From a virus: 64,000 nucleotides of DNA. Positions 1 to 64,000 of the stretch are shown one piece after another. Under the pieces are notes generated by a model. The model made no database searches, was not told the origin of the DNA, and worked only from the letters and a program-made list of their open reading frames with translations. The DNA lies in the IMG/VR virus record IMGVR_UViG_3300005683_000016, positions 78,039-142,038 of that record; one strand, given 5' to 3'. The position numbers and the translations under genes were made by a program. The stretch's first letter is position 1. Every line of letters begins with the position of its first letter.

Positions 1-121
1 TGGAGTGGTACGACCTCAACTCGTATAATCTTTGTTGCAGATATTGATGAAAACATGAAAAGATGTTCTGAGAGTCTTTTAAAAAGGTATCAAAAAGCAA
101 AAGAAATTTTATTAAAAATAT

Positions 122-556
122 AAAACATTCACTCCGTAAAGTCTCAGTCTTTAACAGGACTCATCACAATTCCTTTAACGTAACATAAGTTGGTGGAACA
201 ACAGGCTTAGGTCTGTCTCACAAGTATGGTGGAAGTTTGGTTGGTAAAGACAGGAGATAATGTAATCCGAAAGGATTGGCAGCAGATGGACATTGTGTTC
301 TTAGAACATAAATAGGTCAATACAAGATGAACAGATTAAATGCTGTTATGCTTGGACGTTTCCTTATCTGCCTTTTCAAGGTAACACTTTCAAACCAGTA
401 ATGGTGAGATAATGAAGAGTATACATGTGGCAAAAGTGTTCCAGTAAGAGCATACCCACCTGACAGGGTAATTCCAGTTTCCAAATTGTATAAGGAAACA
501 AACGGGTTAGGATATAATTGTGCAGACGCCCTAATAGTTAGGCTAAGGGTGTAACA
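122..556 (+). ncRNA. Large structured ncRNA, unit A (unknown family)
   Basis: No credible ORF. Shares ordered conserved blocks with unit C (1199-1638), including an identical 30-mer at 395-424 and 1511-1540, with compensatory changes in helices. Confidence 0.75.
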
Positions 557-1192
557 ACTCCCAATCATTGGGTTAAATGGTAGTTATCAGTTACTTTAAC
601 TGATTTAGTTTACCTGTTTGTATAAATTTAACAGGAGTTCTTGTACATACAAGTGTTGTTACTTTTTCCAGCAGTCAGAAAAAAGCGTGTAATCTACGAG
701 ATAAGATTAACCTACTGTACTTAGGTTTGAGGGTAGTTCCATGTACAACATTGAACCGAAAGGTATCATGTAAGCCCTTAAGTGGGATAAATTGAGTTAA
801 ATTGTGTTAGGTTGAAAATATACCTGTAAGAAATAATACATTTTTCGCATTTGTGAGATTTGTTAAGGTTCTTCCACAATAATATCCTACACTCAACGAT
901 GGCAGCCGGGTTGGAACCCACAGTAGATAAATAACTATACTCTTTTAGGGAGTGAAGTCAGTGTAGTTTTACTGAAAAAGTTAGTATTTATTAGACTGTT
1001 TAATAGGCGTTTTGTATATTGTAAAGTTGAATTTGTATCATAGAGAATCTGTGGGTGGATTTGCCTAATGTTAGGTGAGAGTAAGTTCGATCCTTACCGT
1101 TGATATAAATTTAACAGATATACAATCCTATACTATATAAGTCTGATCAACTTATGTAGTAATTGTGCGACCCACATTATTGTGGGTGACAT
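557..1192 (+). ncRNA. Large structured ncRNA, unit B (divergent paralog or distinct ornate RNA)
   Basis: Dense hairpins; T-loop-like GTTCGATCC at ~1085; shares TGGCAGC...TGCC and TATAC-helix-TAATTGTGC-hairpin-ACA with units A and C. Confidence 0.6.
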
Positions 1193-1198
1193 TTTTTA

Positions 1199-1638
1199 AA
1201 AACATCCACTCTGTAAAGTCTTGTAATTCGCGGAAGGTTTAACCAAATATTCTCTCTTTGGGGATAAAAAAGGTGAGAATCCTTTTTCTGTGTATAGACA
1301 GGAGATGATGTAAACCAATAATATGGTTTGGCAGCAGATGGACATTGTTATTTCTTAAATGAACTAATAAATAGGTTACTGTTCAACTTATATAAGTTGA
1401 AAGAGATTTCCTTATCTGCCTCTTCACGTTAATAGCGTTCAAGATACACTATGACCGTTGTGAAATTCAACAGGAACTACTGATTCTATACCAATCAGAG
1501 TAGTGTACATCCAGTAATGGTGAGATAATGAAGAGTATACTAAGGGTAGTCCGTAATTCAGAAATGAATTAGAGTGGGAAAATAGACTTATAAAAATCCT
1601 ACCTTAGTAATTGTGCGGCATCCCAAGTGGATGCAACA
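1199..1638 (+). ncRNA. Large structured ncRNA, unit C (paralog of unit A)
   Basis: Blocks ACATCCACTCTGTAAAGTCT, AGACAGGAGAT, TTGGCAGCAGATGGACATTGT, TTTCCTTATCTGCCT and CCAGTAATGGTGAGATAATGAAGAGTATAC recur in the same order as in unit A. Confidence 0.75.
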
Positions 1639-1651
1639 TTTATTAACAAAA

Positions 1652-1685
1652 TTTTAACTTTTAACTTTTAACTTTTAACTTTTAA
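1652..1685. repeat. Tandem heptamer repeat (TTTTAAC) x ~4.9
   Basis: ttttaacttttaacttttaacttttaacttttaa read directly. Confidence 0.9.
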
Positions 1686-1698
1686 AATTGTAACGGAC

Positions 1699-2076
1699 AT
1701 GCAATTTACATTAGATCACAAAGTAGGAACAAACTATGTAACTGTCACTTTAAGTGGAAAAGTATCTCCACTTATATGGTGTGAGTTTTTCACAAAACTC
1801 CAATATCTTGGAGGAAAACAAGCAGTAGAAGGACAGTCGGATATTTGGCTGTTACCTACTTTTGTTACATCACAAGTCATTGAAGAAATCATCCATAACA
1901 CATGTTTCGTGTGTGGTGGATTGATGAAAGATTCTACTGCATTTTTGAATGACTGTGTATCATTCGATGATTTTGGTAATGATGCTGGACAACGAGGTAC
2001 AACACAATCACGTGTTGGAGAAGCAAAACAAGTCAAAGTTCGCAAGTGCTCTTCTTGCGGACACTCACACACTTAA
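1699..2076 (+). CDS. Hypothetical protein with two CxxC pairs (putative zinc ribbon)
   Basis: CFVC and CSSC motifs. Confidence 0.6.
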   Translation: MQFTLDHKVGTNYVTVTLSGKVSPLIWCEFFTKLQYLGGKQAVEGQSDIWLLPTFVTSQVIEEIIHNTCFVCGGLMKDSTAFLNDCVSFDDFGNDAGQRGTTQSRVGEAKQVKVRKCSSCGHSHT

Positions 2077-2080
2077 AAAC

Positions 2081-2247
2081 AAAACAGGTGTAAGGGGGTG
2101 GAACCTTACTTTAAATGCTACCAACATTGGTTGGCCTCCAGGCATGGATGGGTCTAAAGTTCTTAAAGAACAGGGGTGAATAATGCTTAGAAGTCTGTTA
2201 AAAGACAACTTATAGTAGAATATCTCCCATGAAGGCATTACTGTTTT
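2081..2247 (+). ncRNA. Putative ~165 nt structured intergenic RNA
   Basis: Closing AAAACAG/CTGTTTT; internal stems GTAAGG/CCTTAC, CCAAC/GTTGG, GTTCT/AGAAC, TAATGCTT/AGGCATTA, CATGG/CCATG. Confidence 0.45.
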
Positions 2248-2444
2248 TAAAACAAGCAAACTATGAACAAGATATTGGGAGCATTTAATATAACACGAGA
2301 GTATGATGGACGTGAAGTAGACTATATTGGATTTTTATCTTGTACAGACGGAGAATGGGTCGGATCAGGAGAATCTACATGTATACGATATGTAGAATGG
2401 TTGATCCACACCAATCAGATTCCAAATTAAAAAAACAATAAAAT

Positions 2445-2828
2445 ATGAATCAACCAATCATTTTCAACAAAAATAACCCAACAGAAAAATACATTATTAC
2501 CGAAAAATGGGAGTTTAACCCCAACGGTATAACCGTCTTTGATATGGAAGTTGGAGGAATCACAGATAACGGATTTTACCATTTTTCAGAAATCGAAAAT
2601 TGGAAAAATTTAGTTAAGCAGGATTTAAAACCTAAAGTCGTAGAAGCAATTCAATCACAAAACCTTGAAAAGGTATTATCGTTGCTTCATTTTATGTCAG
2701 ATAACGGTGTATTATATCAAGGAAGATATAACGCTCTAAAGAAACAGTATACTATGGGCATGATTGAATCCTCAGAATATACAAGAGGAATTGCTCAAAT
2801 AGGTTACGACATTTTGAAAAAATTTTAA
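2445..2828 (+). CDS. Protein with C-terminal effector-associated domain 11 (EAD11)-like region
   Basis: VVEAIQSQNLEKVLSLL...LYQGRYNALKKQYTMGMIESSEYTRGIAQIGYDIL resembles the EAD11 pattern as I recall it. Confidence 0.6.
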   Translation: MNQPIIFNKNNPTEKYIITEKWEFNPNGITVFDMEVGGITDNGFYHFSEIENWKNLVKQDLKPKVVEAIQSQNLEKVLSLLHFMSDNGVLYQGRYNALKKQYTMGMIESSEYTRGIAQIGYDILKKF

Positions 2829-2906
2829 AAACCATTGTTAAACACCCACCCCAAAATTCCAAATGATTTATTAGTTATTGAGGAGCGGGTTTATTAAAAA
2901 AATTGT

Positions 2907-3341
2907 ATGAAAATACCAGAACAATTTATCAATAAAAATCAACTTAAAAACCTTCCTATAGGTGCTATAGGCTATGCTGTTCCTTGGGTAATGTGGGTAG
3001 ATATGGAAGGGAATGCTTTTCTTAATGAGAATTACGATTTACACCCTTCAAAAGGAGGTACAGTAAATCTTCAGATTACAAAAGTACCTGAAGGATATGT
3101 TGTGCATTTAGATAAATTCAGGTATTATGACAGAGAATATACTTGGACAAAACAAGAAAGTCCAGGATTTGCTTCCCCAAACGAAGTTTGCTATGGTAGA
3201 GTAGTTGCTTTTTCAGATAAAGAATATCAAGCATTGCAAAAAGATCCTGAGAGAATTAGGAATCTTATTAACGAATGTATTCTTAACGAGAATTATGAAC
3301 AAGCAAGAGAGTACCAAAACATTCTCGATCAATTGAATTAA
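2907..3341 (+). CDS. Hypothetical protein with C-terminal UVR (UvrB/UvrC) motif
   Basis: LINECILNENYEQAREYQNILDQL. Confidence 0.65.
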   Translation: MKIPEQFINKNQLKNLPIGAIGYAVPWVMWVDMEGNAFLNENYDLHPSKGGTVNLQITKVPEGYVVHLDKFRYYDREYTWTKQESPGFASPNEVCYGRVVAFSDKEYQALQKDPERIRNLINECILNENYEQAREYQNILDQLN

Positions 3342-3348
3342 CTGGTTT

Positions 3349-3434
3349 GCTCCTGTGGCGAAATTGGCAGCACGCTGCGGTCTTAAACACCGTTGGAGAA
3401 ATCCGTAAGGGTTCAAGTCCCTTCAGGAGCACCA
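3349..3434 (+). tRNA. trnL: tRNA-Leu (TAA)
   Basis: Acceptor GCTCCTG/CAGGAGC plus ACCA; anticodon arm GCGGT-CTTAAAC-ACCGT; long variable arm; T loop GTTCAAGTC. Confidence 0.93.
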
Positions 3435-3568
3435 AACATTATTTTATGAACATTTACAACCGCATCAGAAAACGTACATCTTGGAAAACCAAATTAAAAG
3501 TTTGGGTCAAGATGCGTATTTTATTAATTTATAATTACTTTAAACAATGAGAACTTAGAACTTATAAA

Positions 3569-3656
3569 GGCCCCGTAACACATCATCGTTCTAAGGTGAC
3601 GCTTAAAAGAGTGTAATTGGAAACAGCGTTTGGGAGTTCGAGTCTCTCCGGGGTCA
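3569..3656 (+). ncRNA. Aberrant tRNA-like RNA (acceptor stem and T arm intact, inner arms rearranged)
   Basis: GGCCCCG/CGGGGTC-A acceptor; GGGAG-TTCGAGT-CTCTC T arm; no D arm at the normal position; no encoded CCA. Confidence 0.7.
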
Positions 3657-3669
3657 CGCTATTTGTTTT

Positions 3670-3701
3670 ATCCGTTTGTTGTAAAATGAACGGATTTTTT
3701 T
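3670..3701 (+). terminator. Intrinsic terminator after tRNA region
   Basis: ATCCGTT.../...AACGGAT stem followed by a T run. Confidence 0.7.
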
Positions 3702-3722
3702 GTTTTACAAACATCAGATTAA

Positions 3723-3968
3723 ATGAACAATTCTCAATTTGCAATCCTCCTATTAATTATAGTAGGAGGGTTGTTTTTCTTTCTCACAAAGCATCGTTCA
3801 GAAGATGCTGAACTCAAAATCGCCAAGGAAGTACTTGGCTCTGACAAAAGAATGTGGAATCTATTTAATGTTTCCTATTCTAATTATAAACGTGGCAAAA
3901 TAGTAGCACTTCTTGTTGCTGCTATCTTTGCTATTATCGTTGTATATGTAATTTTACCTGCAAAATAG
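3723..3968 (+). CDS. Small membrane protein (2 TM)
   Basis: Two hydrophobic segments. Confidence 0.6.
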   Translation: MNNSQFAILLLIIVGGLFFFLTKHRSEDAELKIAKEVLGSDKRMWNLFNVSYSNYKRGKIVALLVAAIFAIIVVYVILPAK

Positions 3969-3978
3969 AAAATATGAA

Positions 3979-4794
3979 ATGAATAAAGTAAGTCGTCAAA
4001 TCAGTTACGTTCCTGTTGTATACAGGAATAAAGAAATCAAAATCAAATTAATCCCATCAATAACTCTATTGGTGGGATTTTTTATTTTATCTATAGGATG
4101 TGGAAAGGCATTGTTTTCTACTCATACAGTAATTAAAGAAGCAGTTCCTTATAAAGTGGTGGAACGAGATACTGTTATCAAAACAGTAACCAAAATTAAA
4201 GTAGTAGAAAAACCAGATCCTCTTAGCAAGAGAATTGTTAGGGATTTTACTAAAAGTTACAAAAGCCTCCCAATTGAGAATAAAAATACTGCTGCTAAGT
4301 ATAAAGGATATACTCCTTACCAAATTATGATGTGGCACTTAAAAGCACACGAAAGTTTTAGACCTCATCAATATCCTGATGGAGATTATCCTTCTAAAGG
4401 ATTCGGTTTAAATCTTAGTCCAGAACACATTGCGTGGGCCAAATCTCAATTAGGATTTCATCCTAAAAAAAGAGACTGGACATTTGAAGAGGGTCAGAAA
4501 TTGTTAATTGCGTACTGTAAAGAACATACGCTCGACCCACTTAGGAAACAATATCCTAAATTAAATCAGTTTCAAATTGTTGCTTATGCTTGTCATAAAT
4601 ACAACACAGGTAACACAAGAAACTTTGGATTTTGTTGTGGAGGTAAGTCTACAAAAATGAGATGTGGAAGGAAAAGTAAAGCACATCATGCTCGTAGAGT
4701 ATTTGAAGTGCAATTATTTAACGGAACATTACCTGCTTCTAAGATTGAAGCAGATCGTGTTAAAGCAATAAATCTACAACAAACATATCAATAA
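3979..4794 (+). CDS. Membrane-anchored lysozyme-fold muramidase (GH24-like)
   Basis: N-terminal TM segment; HLKAHESFRPHQYPDGDYPSKGFG resembles phage lysozyme HEGxRxxxYxD..GYG; later YNTG and RR..E motifs. Confidence 0.6.
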   Translation: MNKVSRQISYVPVVYRNKEIKIKLIPSITLLVGFFILSIGCGKALFSTHTVIKEAVPYKVVERDTVIKTVTKIKVVEKPDPLSKRIVRDFTKSYKSLPIENKNTAAKYKGYTPYQIMMWHLKAHESFRPHQYPDGDYPSKGFGLNLSPEHIAWAKSQLGFHPKKRDWTFEEGQKLLIAYCKEHTLDPLRKQYPKLNQFQIVAYACHKYNTGNTRNFGFCCGGKSTKMRCGRKSKAHHARRVFEVQLFNGTLPASKIEADRVKAINLQQTYQ

Positions 4795-58284: not shown

Positions 58285-61200
58285 TTATCTTTTAATGTTA
58301 CTAATCACTGATCTGATTTTTTGTTCTGGATCTTCATTAATAAGAATGTCGTCAAACTGAGTAATCTTAAGTAAGTGTCTAAAAAACTTGGTGTCTCCCT
58401 TTTCAATATCAAACTGTGGCATATTTCTCTGGTAATAAGCATCGGGAGAACCCGTCACCAAGTCATACAAAGAGTTAGTGAGTTTCCAAGTATTGTCAAT
58501 AATTGAAAGCCCGATAGTAGGACTTTCTAACCACTTAACACCCTCAGTTAGGACAGGAGGAACAAAAGATTCCTCAAGATTAAAGAACGGCATTGCAGAT
58601 AAAGCCTCAGTTTCATTCTTTGCTTGAATTATCATTAAGATAGCGTAGTTTTCAGCGAAAGAGTTCTTTTTGAGTTTTTTAAACTTGTCAGGATCATCTG
58701 CTTCAAACCCAAACACTAAGGAAAGGATTGCAAGAGTAGCCATCATTACACCTATTTCTTTAACTGCTGTGATATACTCTCTTTGTTCTCGTGGAGTCAT
58801 AGCATGCCAGTTTGCTCTACCTGTAGTTAAGATGTCTCTAAGAAGATTAAGAGAGGACTTAAAGAAAACGTTCCAGTATCCTTCAAAGTCTTCACCCATC
58901 ATATAGTTAGCCCTCTTCTTGTCGAATCTTCTTCTAAGCATTGGAATAAGCCAGTTCTTAAAGTAAAGAACTGCTTGACCTATCGTAGTTGTAGACAAAA
59001 AAGTTTTGTTAGAGACTCTACCTTGAACATACTCTACTACTGTTTTGTAAGCAAGACGAGTGTCCATCATGTAATCCATGTCAATAGTTCTACCTGTTTT
59101 TACATCCTTCCATCCGGGTTCTACTCTCATCACTTCATCAGAGGTGATAATGTCGTATAAAGATTTTTGTTCTCCCTTGTCATTCTTTACTTGGACGTGA
59201 TAAAGTCTTGCATACATCAAATTAACACTGATACTAAATTCCATCATTTCGTTAAAAGCCATTATCCCCTTAGTGGAGAGGTTTTTAAGAGTGGCTCCTT
59301 TTGAGAGGTTGTTGAAAATATTCGAGTCCAAAGAAGGATCTAACCAAGTGATAATATGGTAGTCCTTGTCTCTTTTCTCTAAAGGTTTTTCTGCTTGACT
59401 TAAGTAATGAGCATAACTCGTATTAAAATTAAGCGATGCTTTAGTCATTGCTTTGTTTGAAGACCAATCTCCAAACTGAGCACCTATCATATTTTGAAGC
59501 CTACCTTGAAGGTTGTTTTTAACTACGTTGGGAATGTTGAAACCAAGAGAACCTATTGTGTTTATTTTACGAATCGTCCTTAAGGTGTTTTCAGCGAATT
59601 TACCTACTTCTTCTTGTTGGTTGATTCCGTAGATAATGTTCTCTTTACCAAATCTTAAAGCGTTTAACCTGTTCTTGGTCTTAGAGTTGGTTACCATAGA
59701 ATTCTCAATCAAAGAAATAATAGGTAACGATTTCATTAGTTTATCTGCGGTTTTAGTTGATGCAGAAAATCTGATTACACTCATTAAAACATCTTTGGAA
59801 ACTACCTCTGGTTCGTGATATTTGGTAAAAGGAACCGCTACTCGTAATGCTCTTTCAGTATCAGTTTTGGATTCTTCTTCTTGTTCTTGATTTCTCCACC
59901 ATGCCAAGAATTTATCCTTTATTCCTTTGAATCCCGGCATTTTAGATGCTTGTTCATCGTAGTTACCAGCACCTTCTTCGAACCTGTTAGAGGAGTCAAA
60001 GAAATCCTTTTTTAGACTTTTAAGGTATCCTTCTTCGTAAACTTGCTTTTTGATGTAAGGAAGGACGTATCCTATATTTCCTTCTGCTATGGTAGTAGAG
60101 GCTTGAGTATTTAAATGATAATCAGTAACTTGCTTAAGAATACGAGAAGCGGCTACATCCTTGGGGTTACTTGAGTTAAGAAGTCTTTTATATTCAGGGT
60201 TTTGAAACTCTTCAGACTTTGGATTCCACTTATTTAAACGTTCGTTAAAAGTAAGGGGTATTTTTTCTGTGTGCCACTTTTCTCTAACGGTTTGATTAGA
60301 ATATTTATGTGAAGGACTTAAAAGAATGTACTCACTGTTAACAGGTTCAATCTTATGCCAGATATAAGTAGGTGTCCATCTTTTAAACTCTCCTTCGGGA
60401 GTAAATTTTGTCTTTAAAAAGTGATTATCGTAAAACCACTTAGTAAATTTATGATCAGGATTCTCTCTTAGGGTTTTGTGAAAGTCAGGTCTTGTGATGA
60501 AGTCTGTTATTTTAAGTCCTTGTACCCACATATAACTTGCTGAGTCGTTATGTAATTCAGCAAAACCTGTGCGAGTAATCATCTCATTGAAAGCGTCCTT
60601 ATAAGAATCAGTTACATCCTTGGATTGAATTTCATCCAACTTGGATACTAAGTCTCTGATTTGTTTTTTTACTTCCTTTAATTCGGCATTTTTAATTTCT
60701 TTAGATTCTTCACGAGTTAATCTTTTAATTTCTTCTATTTCTTCGTCTATCTCTTTAACTAATTTTTGAATCTCTGGAGTAGATTGAATTCCATCAAAGA
60801 CATTATCCTCATCTCTAAGATGAGAAGTAAGATCAAACATTTGTTCCCAAAGATCACCTAACTTACTCTTGTTATCTACTCCAGTAATTTCAATTACTCG
60901 ATCAGTTAAGGTTTGGATTTGGTCACTTATTTCTTTTCGTTGGTTGTACCAGTCTTGGTGGAATTTAGTTACCGTATTATTATCTAACCATTCTATTACG
61001 TCTATTAGATTTTTCTCCTTTGCGTACTTATAGAGGTTTACAAAATTGTCCTTACCCTCAATCAATTTAAGTTCGAGAGTATCTTTAATTTCTGGACTAA
61101 GAAGCAAAGTAGTTAGAAAGACTTGGAACTCTACCCTAAACTTGGATACATCAGGTCTATACTCGTAGAATTCTCTGTCAATCTCAGCCTTCCTCTGAAG

Positions 61201-64000
61201 GAATAGAGCCTTTTCTAAATCCTTACCTACCTTAGGATCACCATTAGAATAGGTAGGTCTTTTTATTTCTTTAAGTTCGTTTCTTAAAGCAAGAATCTTC
61301 CGATTGGTTTCCCTTAGGGAAAGTCCTTCTTCCATCCTTGCGTTGTCGGAAAGTTCTCTTATTTTATCGTAGATAGAAGATTGTTCCTCCCTAATTTCTT
61401 CAAAGAGTTCTTTATTCTCTTCAAGTAGAGCGTCGTACTTAGTATAGAATTCGGGTTTATATTCTCTGTGCCAATTGATAGTTAACCACTTATCAAAGTC
61501 ATCTCGAATCTTAATATATTCTTCGTGGGCTTTTTTCACTTCTTCATCTGAAGAAGAGTTGTTGTTCTTAATTTCTAACCACTTTTCTTTTGCTTGTCTA
61601 ACTTCATATTGTTTTTCATCTCTCTTCCACTCGTTCATATAAGGATGAAGTAAAGTCCATGCTTTCTTTGGAACCATTTTACCATTCTCATATTCAAGAG
61701 TGTCATCCAAATAAAGGATTTTGTCTTGCCATTCCTTAGAAGTTAATCCGCTTTTAGATTCTTCATCAGAAATAAACTGACCCAATCTTTGAGCAGGAGC
61801 AATCTCTTCCACACTAACTGTAGCCTTAATCTTTTCCAAGTGTACAAACAAAGTACCTATCAAAGGATCAGAGGAGTTGTGCAAAACTTTGACCCAAATT
61901 GTCAAGGGGGAAATGTCTTCAGTTTCACCGTTAAGGATTTTTACTATATCTTCAGCAGATACAAAATGTCCTTCCTTATCTTTTATTTTCTCAAGTTTAT
62001 CAATAGATTTTTGAATTTCTACTTTTGCTGCTTCTGGTGCTTTTGCTAATCTTTCTTTGAGTTCATCTATTTCGAACTGTTTGTGAACATTATAAGAATC
62101 TAAATAAGGAGCAAGTTTAGACGCTATTACCTTAACGCTTAAGTCCCTACTCTTGAGTTTAGTGGATTCTATTTGAGCAAGAAGTTCTCCCAATAAAGAG
62201 TTAAGAATGTCTGTATTAGGTACATTCTTAGTGACTTCTCTAAGGTCATCTATATAAGATTTCCATTTGTTACCCATCTTGGTAACTAATGCAAGTTCTT
62301 GAATAGCAATGTCTATATCTTTTTGCTCACCTGAGGCTAACCTATTTTTTATGTCTTCGTAATCAGCGTTATTTCTACGTCTGAAAAATTCAGTCATTGC
62401 TTCAAGTGTCCCAACAAAATGAGTTAAGAGTTCTTCATACTTTTCAATCTTGTCTAAAAGTTGTTTTCCTTGAGCAGCCTTGGTAGTGGGTAATAATAAA
62501 TCTCCCTCATCCCTAAACAGGGATGAAAATTCTTCTTCTATGAGTTGTTTACCCAATCTTTGTTCTAAGCGAGTAATATCTTTGGACTCACTCGTAATAA
62601 TTGAGAAGGCTCTACCAATACTCTTGGTTAGGGTAGGTTGATCTGCTCCTTTTAAAGTTTTTAAGAGTGTTTGAATATTGCTTCTTTGGGCTTCTATTCT
62701 GTCTTTTCTTTTAACCCTATCTAAGAAAGGTTTGTAAGGTTGTTTTATTTTACTCTTGTTATAAAGTTTAAATTTAAAGTCTTTACCTGCATAAGGAGGT
62801 TCGTTGTCAATAAAGAGAGAGTCTTTGTTATTTTCAATAAGACTTTCTACAGGATTCGTCATTGCGGTTCCCATAGGATTTCCCTGCTCGTCAAAAATCT
62901 CTACTTCTCGATTTACGAAATTGATCTCAACTCCGGGAAACAAAAGACTCAACTTCTCGATAAGATTAGGGTGAGAAGGTAACGAGGTATAAAATTCAAG
63001 ATTCTCAATTACCTGTGCTTTGTCCTTAAGTTCAAGACCTAACTGAGTAAACTCTACTTTTTCGTAAAATTCACCGAGAGCATCCATATCAAATCCCATC
63101 AAAACCTTAGACTTTTCTCCTTTATTTTTCCAAGGATAAGAAGCACTTTTAAACACAGTGTCGCTAAGATTTATAAAAACCTTAGGATAATACTTGGTGT
63201 CTATATTTCCTACTGTGGTGAGAATAGTAGCCTCCTTTACAAAGTCACCTAAAGAGTACATGTCTTCGAGCATCATAGACCTCTCTCTGTAAAGTTCACT
63301 GGTGTCAAGATTAGTTATCTTTTCTGCGGACTTTATAAAAGCACCTATTGAAGTAGTCTGACCTTTAACCCATCTAAAGAAGTCTTTGATCCAACGAACC
63401 ACATTTTCTACTAAGGAATCAGAACCTGTCCAATATTTAAACAACTCCTTATCAGTAAGATAAAGACTTACGAGTTTAGCCATTGCTTCTCTTTTGAGTC
63501 TGTCTACATCATTACCATAAATCTTACGATAGTCTGCTACTACTTTTTTATATAATCGAGTACGGGTAACTTCATCCCTCATAGTTTTTTTAAGAGGGTT
63601 GTCATCTTTCATCAACTCAATTAGAAAGTGTGAAACCTCTTCAGCCAAGGCTCCTTCTTTACCTTTCTGAAGTTGGATTACAAAGTCTTTAATTTGAGCA
63701 AGCCCATTAACTCCCTTACGTTCAAGCAGGTCATCCAAGACTTCTACCTTAAAGTCAGGATTTAACTTGGTTACAAATTGTTCTAACTTTGAATATAAAG
63801 ATTCATCCTTTACTACTTGGGAAGGTGATAACGCTATAAATATGTCTGTTGTAAAATTATCATGTACGTTTTTTACGATAACTCCGTCATTACCATTTTC
63901 TATGGCTCTGTCTACAAGATTTTTAAAACCTTCTTTCTCTCTGGAGTACCCATCCTTAGTATCTACTATAAGTGGATTATTTAAAGTAATAATATATTGA
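58285..64000 (-). CDS. Giant polyvalent virion/ejection protein, 5'-truncated (ART-PolyVal-like and zincin-like domains, long helical C-terminus)
   Basis: Frame stays open from 63999 through 63738, adding ...TLNNPLIVD...AIENGNDGVIVKNVHD...FIALSPSQV; then LAEEVSHF...REAMAK. Confidence 0.75.
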   Translation of the reverse strand, partial: QYIITLNNPLIVDTKDGYSREKEGFKNLVDRAIENGNDGVIVKNVHDNFTTDIFIALSPSQVVKDESLYSKLEQFVTKLNPDFKVEVLDDLLERKGVNGLAQIKDFVIQLQKGKEGALAEEVSHFLIELMKDDNPLKKTMRDEVTRTRLYKKVVADYRKIYGNDVDRLKREAMAKLVSLYLTDKELFKYWTGSDSLVENVVRWIKDFFRWVKGQTTSIGAFIKSAEKITNLDTSELYRERSMMLEDMYSLGDFVKEATILTTVGNIDTKYYPKVFINLSDTVFKSASYPWKNKGEKSKVLMGFDMDALGEFYEKVEFTQLGLELKDKAQVIENLEFYTSLPSHPNLIEKLSLLFPGVEINFVNREVEIFDEQGNPMGTAMTNPVESLIENNKDSLFIDNEPPYAGKDFKFKLYNKSKIKQPYKPFLDRVKRKDRIEAQRSNIQTLLKTLKGADQPTLTKSIGRAFSIITSESKDITRLEQRLGKQLIEEEFSSLFRDEGDLLLPTTKAAQGKQLLDKIEKYEELLTHFVGTLEAMTEFFRRRNNADYEDIKNRLASGEQKDIDIAIQELALVTKMGNKWKSYIDDLREVTKNVPNTDILNSLLGELLAQIESTKLKSRDLSVKVIASKLAPYLDSYNVHKQFEIDELKERLAKAPEAAKVEIQKSIDKLEKIKDKEGHFVSAEDIVKILNGETEDISPLTIWVKVLHNSSDPLIGTLFVHLEKIKATVSVEEIAPAQRLGQFISDEESKSGLTSKEWQDKILYLDDTLEYENGKMVPKKAWTLLHPYMNEWKRDEKQYEVRQAKEKWLEIKNNNSSSDEEVKKAHEEYIKIRDDFDKWLTINWHREYKPEFYTKYDALLEENKELFEEIREEQSSIYDKIRELSDNARMEEGLSLRETNRKILALRNELKEIKRPTYSNGDPKVGKDLEKALFLQRKAEIDREFYEYRPDVSKFRVEFQVFLTTLLLSPEIKDTLELKLIEGKDNFVNLYKYAKEKNLIDVIEWLDNNTVTKFHQDWYNQRKEISDQIQTLTDRVIEITGVDNKSKLGDLWEQMFDLTSHLRDEDNVFDGIQSTPEIQKLVKEIDEEIEEIKRLTREESKEIKNAELKEVKKQIRDLVSKLDEIQSKDVTDSYKDAFNEMITRTGFAELHNDSASYMWVQGLKITDFITRPDFHKTLRENPDHKFTKWFYDNHFLKTKFTPEGEFKRWTPTYIWHKIEPVNSEYILLSPSHKYSNQTVREKWHTEKIPLTFNERLNKWNPKSEEFQNPEYKRLLNSSNPKDVAASRILKQVTDYHLNTQASTTIAEGNIGYVLPYIKKQVYEEGYLKSLKKDFFDSSNRFEEGAGNYDEQASKMPGFKGIKDKFLAWWRNQEQEEESKTDTERALRVAVPFTKYHEPEVVSKDVLMSVIRFSASTKTADKLMKSLPIISLIENSMVTNSKTKNRLNALRFGKENIIYGINQQEEVGKFAENTLRTIRKINTIGSLGFNIPNVVKNNLQGRLQNMIGAQFGDWSSNKAMTKASLNFNTSYAHYLSQAEKPLEKRDKDYHIITWLDPSLDSNIFNNLSKGATLKNLSTKGIMAFNEMMEFSISVNLMYARLYHVQVKNDKGEQKSLYDIITSDEVMRVEPGWKDVKTGRTIDMDYMMDTRLAYKTVVEYVQGRVSNKTFLSTTTIGQAVLYFKNWLIPMLRRRFDKKRANYMMGEDFEGYWNVFFKSSLNLLRDILTTGRANWHAMTPREQREYITAVKEIGVMMATLAILSLVFGFEADDPDKFKKLKKNSFAENYAILMIIQAKNETEALSAMPFFNLEESFVPPVLTEGVKWLESPTIGLSIIDNTWKLTNSLYDLVTGSPDAYYQRNMPQFDIEKGDTKFFRHLLKITQFDDILINEDPEQKIRSVISNIKR

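Follow-up and report, generated by a model that had tools for sequence, protein, structure and literature searches.

What would a phage gain from an adaptor domain of bacterial conflict systems when it encodes none of the effectors to which that adaptor is joined in bacteria, and could such a protein act as a decoy? The question is raised by a 127-aa protein encoded in a 64,000-nucleotide stretch of viral DNA (hereafter the window), which covers bases 78039-142038 of a 142,038-bp IMG/VR record (IMGVR_UViG_3300005683_000016) that is judged complete by CheckV. The adaptor in question, EAD11, is an effector-associated domain of NTP-dependent conflict systems described by Kaur, Burroughs, Iyer and Aravind, who predicted that it binds homotypically and formulated an 'EAD principle', whereby the same EAD occurs on a core NTPase and on effectors, in at least two copies per locus or genome (eLife 2020, PMC7159879; eLife 2021, PMC8195603). 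The phage gene is not a member of such an EAD-coupled conflict system: its EAD11 is the only one in 142 kb, is accompanied by no NTPase core, and is not fused to TIR, SIR2, caspase, FGE-sulfatase (FGS) or any other effector. The features of the locus are as follows (window coordinates).

122..1640, plus strand: upstream non-coding structured-RNA cluster, free of ORFs, which marks the same island in related phages
1699..2076, plus strand: 125-aa ORF with a CxxC...CxxC pattern, left conserved flank, with a homologue in the related phage fragment G410
2263..2430, plus strand: 55-aa ORF sharing the variable slot, 14 nt upstream of the EAD11 gene (ORF listing)
2445..2828, plus strand: EAD11-only gene (P0001), ATG start, 127 aa, TAA stop included (ORF listing)
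2445..2591, plus strand: N-terminal region of its product, residues 1-49, β-rich, of uncertain fold and without family
2592..2819, plus strand: EAD11 domain, residues 50-125, four helices, Pfam PF19964
2907..3341, plus strand: 144-aa ORF, right conserved flank, 62% identical to its G410 homologue

A divergent EAD11 domain in a phage protein

Searches against Pfam-A recover a sole match for the 127-aa protein, EAD11 (PF19964; E-value 4.4e-8, 33.4 bits against a curated gathering cut-off of 26 bits), which aligns residues 50-125 with positions 3-74 of the 80 in the profile, and a six-frame search of the whole 142-kb record finds one EAD11, with 34.2 bits. Searched exhaustively with phmmer, 1.84 billion cluster representatives yielded 20 non-self matches, 17 of which carry the Pfam EAD11 domain; the relatives comprise EAD11-TIR, EAD11-CHAT and tandem-EAD11 proteins and a few short EAD11 proteins, and no full-length relative is among these matches. 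Judged by these comparisons, the match is far beyond chance and the C-terminal domain is a genuine, divergent member of the EAD11 family. The initial annotation had placed an EAD11 domain at the C-terminus and had proposed a comparison with the family profile; the score above the curated cut-off and the EAD11 proteins among the phmmer relatives bear it out. The motif on which it drew is matched at every letter (G93 R Y N x L98 ... G105 x I107 ... E111 Y112 ... I119), and its view that no enzymatic effector is present agrees with EAD11 being all that Pfam finds in the protein and with a phage genome that holds neither a second EAD11 nor a TIR domain. The position that it gave the domain stands; the length of about 65 residues is slightly short of the 70-76 or so that the domain spans.

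Two of the phmmer matches (P0005 and P0006) are low-complexity repeat artefacts, and a further one (P0014) lies below Pfam detection yet aligns over the EAD11 domain; P0014 and P0010 are on contigs too short to tell whether these are phage or host genes. PADLOC and a tblastn search of 50,697 deposited phage genomes gave no match to the protein, and PHROG gave nothing significant; a marginal match there, phrog_30519, was set aside as it is not of the EAD11 family and does not match host EAD11 domains.

An AlphaFold2 model built on an alignment of 14 sequences predicts four helices in the C-terminal domain (residues 53-70, 74-84, 86-103 and 109-126; pLDDT 77-97). With this model and no catalytic family detected, the protein displays the small, non-enzymatic, all-helical and terminal domain that characterizes the EAD11 family. 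The modelled domain has four helices against the six of Death-like domains and, in that part of the 2021 supplement which gives profile-profile searches, EAD11 recovers itself only and no Death-like domains (PMC8195603). Foldseek comparisons of the modelled protein with the PDB and with the viral models of BFVD returned no match, and VIA-align against 48,161 chains returned generic helical bundles only, with Z of 7.5 or less.

Comparison with 73 other EAD11 domains gives 27 positions with at least 70% conservation; the phage domain keeps 16 of these and differs at 11. A central motif is kept (R94..K99..Y102..G105.I107...E111.xR114...Q118 I119.Y121..L124), and the changes cluster in helices 1-2 (I65V, L68A, G72Q, T74L, A77V) and at the C-terminal end (N120G, A122D, E125K); one might speculate that, as in capping decoys, the domain has retained one binding face while losing a second. 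Against the EAD11 profile the phage copy scores 33 bits, compared with 45-80 for most cellular copies, and with such divergence it may no longer bind host EAD11 at all, which counts against a decoy. Among residues invariant in 28 host proteins, G12, A17, A28 and E65 (host numbering) are changed in the phage protein. The joint loss of G12 and E65 in both of the crAss-like phage copies discussed below was discarded as a signal, its probability by chance being about 4 in 10 on a hypergeometric estimate.

Cellular relatives and their genomic contexts

Cellular relatives were collected by scanning one genome of each prokaryotic species with sequence patterns. The patterns were taken from the phage protein's own best matches, which had topped the unbiased phmmer search, and are therefore biased to this clade; on that footing, all 38 confirmed relatives (34-56% identity over residues about 60-125) fall in Saprospiraceae, Lewinellaceae, Chitinophagales or unclassified Bacteroidota MAGs. 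Pfam EAD11 is present in each of the 35 complete ORFs among the nearest relatives, of which 32 are EAD11-TIR and two EAD11-CHAT proteins. Closest to the phage domain among cellular proteins are the EAD11-TIR proteins of Saprospiraceae (about 275-290 aa; 35-48% identity over residues 60-125), which have its central motif in common; the phage protein differs from them in lacking TIR and in having EAD11 as its C-terminal domain, where theirs is N-terminal. An entry of the 2021 supplement lists EAD11 in Haliscomenobacter hydrossis, a filamentous sludge bacterium, in a ROCO-type LRR+AP-GTPase+COR+EAD11 architecture (PMC8195603). Thus, besides homology above threshold, a small all-helical fold and terminal position, the phage domain resembles the described family in that its nearest relatives belong to organisms of the same kind; it differs in being phage-encoded, effector-less, core-less, divergent, the only copy, and preceded by a β-rich orphan N-terminus.

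EAD11 is rare elsewhere: an even sampling of 301 Bacteroidota genomes found it in four, and of 121 genomes from the same order 10 have it. Each of five Saprospiraceae-type genomes holds 12-23 EAD11 matches, and the architectures sampled in them include LRR-EAD11-Roc-COR-TIR, EAD11-FGS (four proteins), EAD11-TIR-FGS and caspase-EAD11. One LRR-EAD11-Roc-COR-TIR protein of 1384 aa (L064 1684-5835, minus strand) is a ROCO-type GTPase with adaptor and TIR, in which EAD11 lies mid-chain. When the phage protein is used as the query, one EAD11 copy per genome is detected, namely the EAD11-TIR orthologue, with 41-48% identity.

The chromosomal position of the EAD11-TIR gene is usually conserved, with a convergent LytTR response regulator beside it. 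Four loci display a row of genes for SIR2-EAD11 (361 aa), nSTAND1 NTPase-FGS (851-863 aa) and EAD11-TIR (282-290 aa) proteins, at L016 2222-7696, L022 2264-6873, L023 2214-6852 and L028 1204-6849; the L028 row has a second EAD11-TIR, and in L016 an AbiGi-like gene comes after EAD11-TIR. This row looks like a STAND-centred defence cassette in which two NAD-targeting effectors are tied by one adaptor, and the Saprospiraceae rows follow the 'EAD principle' of Kaur et al. In the likely hosts EAD11 is carried by TIR, SIR2, caspase and FGS proteins that are linked to STAND NTPases or ROCO GTPases; vWA-MoxR ternary systems, where EADs were first defined, were not seen with EAD11 in the likely-host loci sampled.

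The domain also occurs away from effectors. Some proteins consist entirely of 2-5 tandem EAD11 repeats; two of these proteins (P0002 and P0003) are encoded by adjacent genes of one genome (L051 8911-11449), and two others (P0004 and P0009) have a lipoprotein-like signal peptide that would place EAD11 arrays outside the cytoplasm, an unexpected location for an intracellular adaptor. A Lewinellaceae EAD11-TIR orthologue of 131 aa (L021 5992-6384, contig G002:C12) has kept EAD11 and lost TIR, and several host genomes contain EAD11-only open frames of 81-145 aa; hosts may have adaptor-only regulators of their own, or decaying copies. Both the host EAD11-only frames and the secreted tandem proteins indicate that EAD11 need not serve to tether an effector, which counts against the decoy reading.

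A distant crAss-like phage and its likely host

The large terminase subunit (TerL) of the phage, located by tblastn, matches crAss-like phages only, for which the hosts named are Bacteroides and Flavobacterium, and a Pfam Terminase_6C search of the phage gave no match. For the DNA polymerase, too, crAss-like phages give the best matches (28-29% identity). These two proteins identify a distant crAss-like phage whose host very probably belongs to Bacteroidota. RIIA and RIIB, a glycosyltransferase, homing endonucleases and a thymidylate synthase are also encoded. At the end of the window a very long ORF (58285-63999, minus strand; at least 1817 aa) continues past the end of the window, which is also that of the record region, and the GC skew flips there.

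The DNA around the gene is complete in one bioreactor-sludge metagenome, and the gene region is partially present in sludge, digester and aquaculture runs from about ten other studies. The host is probably a filamentous bacterium of the Saprospiraceae or Lewinellaceae type within Bacteroidota. A Saprospiraceae-like host had been hinted at from the domain alone, and the crAss-like TerL and polymerase, the taxonomy of the nearest cellular EAD11 domains and the sludge source all point the same way. Candidate host MAGs have a GC content of about 47-54% against 33% for the phage, a gap that makes any more exact host assignment tentative and counts against the decoy reading.

The phage genome contains no TIR, NAPRTase/NamPT or Tad2-like gene and so offers no second sign of NAD-centred counter-defence. 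As its 142 kb hold a single EAD11 and no TIR, any like-with-like partner of the domain must be either the protein itself or a host protein.

The gene lies in a variable accessory slot

Two fragments of related phages retain parts of the same island. The closer relative, G410 (IMGVR_UViG_3300033066_000941, 29 kb), has a DNA polymerase 77% identical to that of the phage, and its nucleotide blocks in the RNA cluster are 73-97% conserved. Its left flank (L087 6883-7014) is 57% identical in amino-acid sequence to genome positions 79875-80006, and its two flanks enclose other small ORFs, about 5.3 kb in all, among which EAD11 is absent. As the flanks are kept and the content differs, the EAD11 gene lies in a variable accessory slot; that the closest relative does without it counts against the decoy reading. 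The more distant relative, G409 (IMGVR_UViG_3300033121_000926, 16.6 kb), shares the RNA-cluster block and an SLT-like ORF in the same order; its RNA cluster is conserved at 88% over 42 nt, with additional tblastx blocks at window positions 693-1029. The RNA-cluster counterparts (L085 15464-15793; L087 7449-8303) have nearby protein genes that are diverged or replaced, and Rfam finds no family other than tRNA in window positions 1-4000.

The neighbours of the EAD11 gene have no family match, and the 55-aa ORF before it has in addition no counterpart in G409 or G410 by tblastx; 78 nt separate the EAD11 gene from the next one. A tRNA-Leu(UAA) gene (3349-3434) directly follows the 144-aa ORF, with a terminator-like hairpin at 3670-3695, and a site at 1661-1688 matches a promoter consensus. 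By these consensus matches, 1699-3700 would be one unit that holds the EAD11 gene.

The EAD11 gene has a GC content of 31.5% and a GC3 of 30.5%, with 32-34% GC in the phage and 44-53% in host EAD11-TIR genes. A composition equal to that of the phage and unlike that of the host genes marks it as long resident, and neither an assembly chimera nor a fresh capture.

EAD11-only genes in other phage contigs

In the collinear slot, flanked by the shared RNA-cluster block and the SLT-like ORF, G409 encodes a different EAD11-only ORF of 121 aa, with an N-terminal EAD11 (47.7 bits) and a 55-aa tail and without TIR. This copy is 68% identical to the N-terminus of a host EAD11-TIR and 34% identical to the 127-aa protein, and its gene has a GC content of 43% on a contig of 35%. 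It was found only by an IMG/VR profile scan confirmed with a host sequence; the scan confirmed with the phage sequence found nothing. A third context is L091, a 15.4-kb phage-like contig with RecT, a DUF3799 exonuclease, HNH, an N6/N4 methylase and many small co-directional ORFs, which is unrelated to the crAss-like phage except for the EAD11 domain of a 114-aa EAD11-only ORF (P0018, EAD11 plus tail; L091 8001-8345). Neither the G409 nor the L091 protein tail aligns with TIR. An adaptor of host origin, enzyme-less and recurrent in viruses, as in viral adaptor-only proteins, is hence found in three phage contexts.

Seven loci from the first IMG/VR scan were rejected as EAD11, their matches being chance or coiled-coil motifs in 1186-aa tape-measure-like proteins. 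These proteins (L004-L010, 3709-7269) carry EEYNALKKQYSKGEISREDYEKKAYEIG, in which the short motif YNALKKQY..G.IS..DYEKK is common to all seven and which mimics the EAD11 helix-3/4 hairpin; on account of this resemblance it gives false positives in motif-based EAD11 searches.

Maximum-likelihood analysis nests the G409 copy (support 98/86) among Saprospiraceae EAD11-TIR proteins of the STAND-operon loci. The 127-aa protein lies on a long branch with a tandem-EAD11 repeat, the EAD11-TIR protein P0019, and P0020 (96/92), and this long-branch group falls inside a 19-row clade of Saprospiraceae EAD11-TIR and EAD11-CHAT proteins (98/91). The phage domain is not nested in one host clade, a further point against the decoy reading. 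A single origin of both crAss-like copies is not rejected by the AU test (p 0.11), and independent capture of the two is the favoured reading.

Possible functions of the phage protein

The interpretation that we hold to be about evenly balanced between right and wrong is that the phage protein acts as an adaptor-only decoy, or dominant-negative, against EAD11-coupled effectors, most plausibly those of the TIR class. It draws on the recurrence of enzyme-less EAD11 in phages, the origin of these copies in host EAD11-TIR/CHAT clades, the variable island, and the lack of a partner in the phage. In bacteria of the likely host type, TIR, SIR2, caspase/CHAT, FGS and ROCO-GTPase proteins carry EAD11 as their presumed docking module, which is predicted to bring effectors to NTPase sensors through like-with-like binding. 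After infection, the phage protein would bind EAD11 modules of the host, with the EAD11-TIR class, which it resembles, as the most likely target, and, having no effector, it would compete with or cap EAD11-EAD11 contacts. NAD-consuming or proteolytic effectors would then not be recruited or oligomerised, and abortive infection would be blunted. For the phage protein itself, binding, inhibition, expression time and exact host are all points that we infer.

The unexplained N-terminal region could carry the real function, and this too counts against a decoy. AlphaFold2 predicts strands in it (residues 5-7, 15-25, 28-40 and 43-46) at low confidence (pLDDT 38-53). Residues 1-49 have no Pfam, PHROG or PADLOC match, P0014 alone shares a weak motif with them (D..GG...G..H..EI), and a structure search of the ESM Atlas points to small barrels of the Sm/LSM- and SH3-like kinds (TM 0.6-0.69), a weak lead only. 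It is conceivable, though we consider it unlikely, that the EAD11-like domain is a self-association module which multimerises this N-terminal β domain, with no interplay with host EAD11; the N-terminus might then bind phage or host nucleic acid or protein, perhaps in connection with the conserved non-coding RNA cluster, about 800 nt downstream of which the gene lies. The uniqueness and predicted β-rich nature of the first 50 residues would fit such a function, as would the barrel-like matches and the tandem and secreted EAD11 proteins, in which the domain is used outside effector tethering. However, the N-terminal model is of low confidence and has no RNA-binding family match, and the G409 and L091 ORFs lack this N-terminus, having EAD11 first and then unrelated tails, so the part that recurs in phages is EAD11.

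A phage adaptor could also exploit the host network, docking on EAD11 effectors or sensors so as to trigger or redirect them; superinfection exclusion, the timing of lysis or host shut-off, or a defence component borne by the phage and dependent on host partners are possible ends. Homology and the single copy speak for this as much as for a decoy, but we regard it as rather improbable: the phage joins the domain to no effector, sensor or membrane anchor, a lytic phage would as a rule be harmed if NAD-depleting or caspase effectors were activated, and the gene lies in an island of small orphan ORFs and not near the RIIA/RIIB homologues. That the gene is a functionless fragment of host EAD11, gained by illegitimate recombination and not yet lost, is very improbable, for although it is divergent, absent from G410 and placed in a recombination-prone slot of a genome with homing endonucleases elsewhere, its frame is intact, its fully phage-like composition implies long residence, the central motif (R..K..Y..G.I...E.xR...QI.Y..L) is kept, EAD11 is fused to an additional domain, and at least two further phage contigs have intact EAD11-only ORFs of different origin. 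The remaining probability falls to functions beyond the decoy and these three alternatives.

The decoy reading has parallels in adaptor-only proteins of eukaryotic systems, such as the DED-only vFLIPs, the PYD-only proteins of poxviruses and the CARD-only and PYD-only proteins of cells. By analogy, the phage protein is a predicted homotypic adaptor without an enzyme, apparently copied from a host, that could poison assembly; it has no homology to these eukaryotic decoys. Among phage anti-defence proteins, the Tad1, Tad2 and Acb2 sponges, DSAD1 and the DNA mimics are comparable as small accessory proteins of variable islands, and the phage protein would likewise be aimed at NADase-type abortive-infection effectors; it matches none of them in sequence or fold. 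Docking-domain mimicry does not figure in the accessible part of the EVADES catalogue text (bioRxiv 10.1101/2025.06.06.658234), and full-text and keyword searches, as far as the searchable literature extends, returned no description of a phage-encoded EAD protein.

Implications

Taken further, the decoy reading leads to a broader proposal, to which we give slightly less than even credence: phages of filamentous Saprospiraceae-type bacteria would have copied EAD11 repeatedly and independently off the TIR and caspase suicide effectors of their hosts and kept it, enzyme-less, as a capping decoy. If true, such proteins would be the counterpart, among prokaryotes, of viral DED-, CARD- and PYD-only proteins; as a new class of phage anti-defence, they would extend phage counter-defence beyond sponges, DNA mimics and enzyme inhibitors to docking-domain mimicry, as in animal viruses.

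To our knowledge, the EAD-coupled conflict systems of multicellular bacteria are described from comparative genomics, and both EAD-EAD binding and defence against phages are predictions. An adaptor-only phage gene is the footprint to be expected if these systems act against phages and need adaptor contacts, and, if the decoy reading holds, it would provide a first direct handle on whether EADs work by like-with-like binding. Either the 127-aa protein or its 78-aa domain is a small expressible reagent for EAD11-EAD11 binding and for the STAND, SIR2 and TIR cassettes of Saprospiraceae. Finally, the EAD11 kinship supports the assignment of a host to an environmental crAss-like lineage, and Saprospiraceae are key filamentous bacteria of activated sludge.
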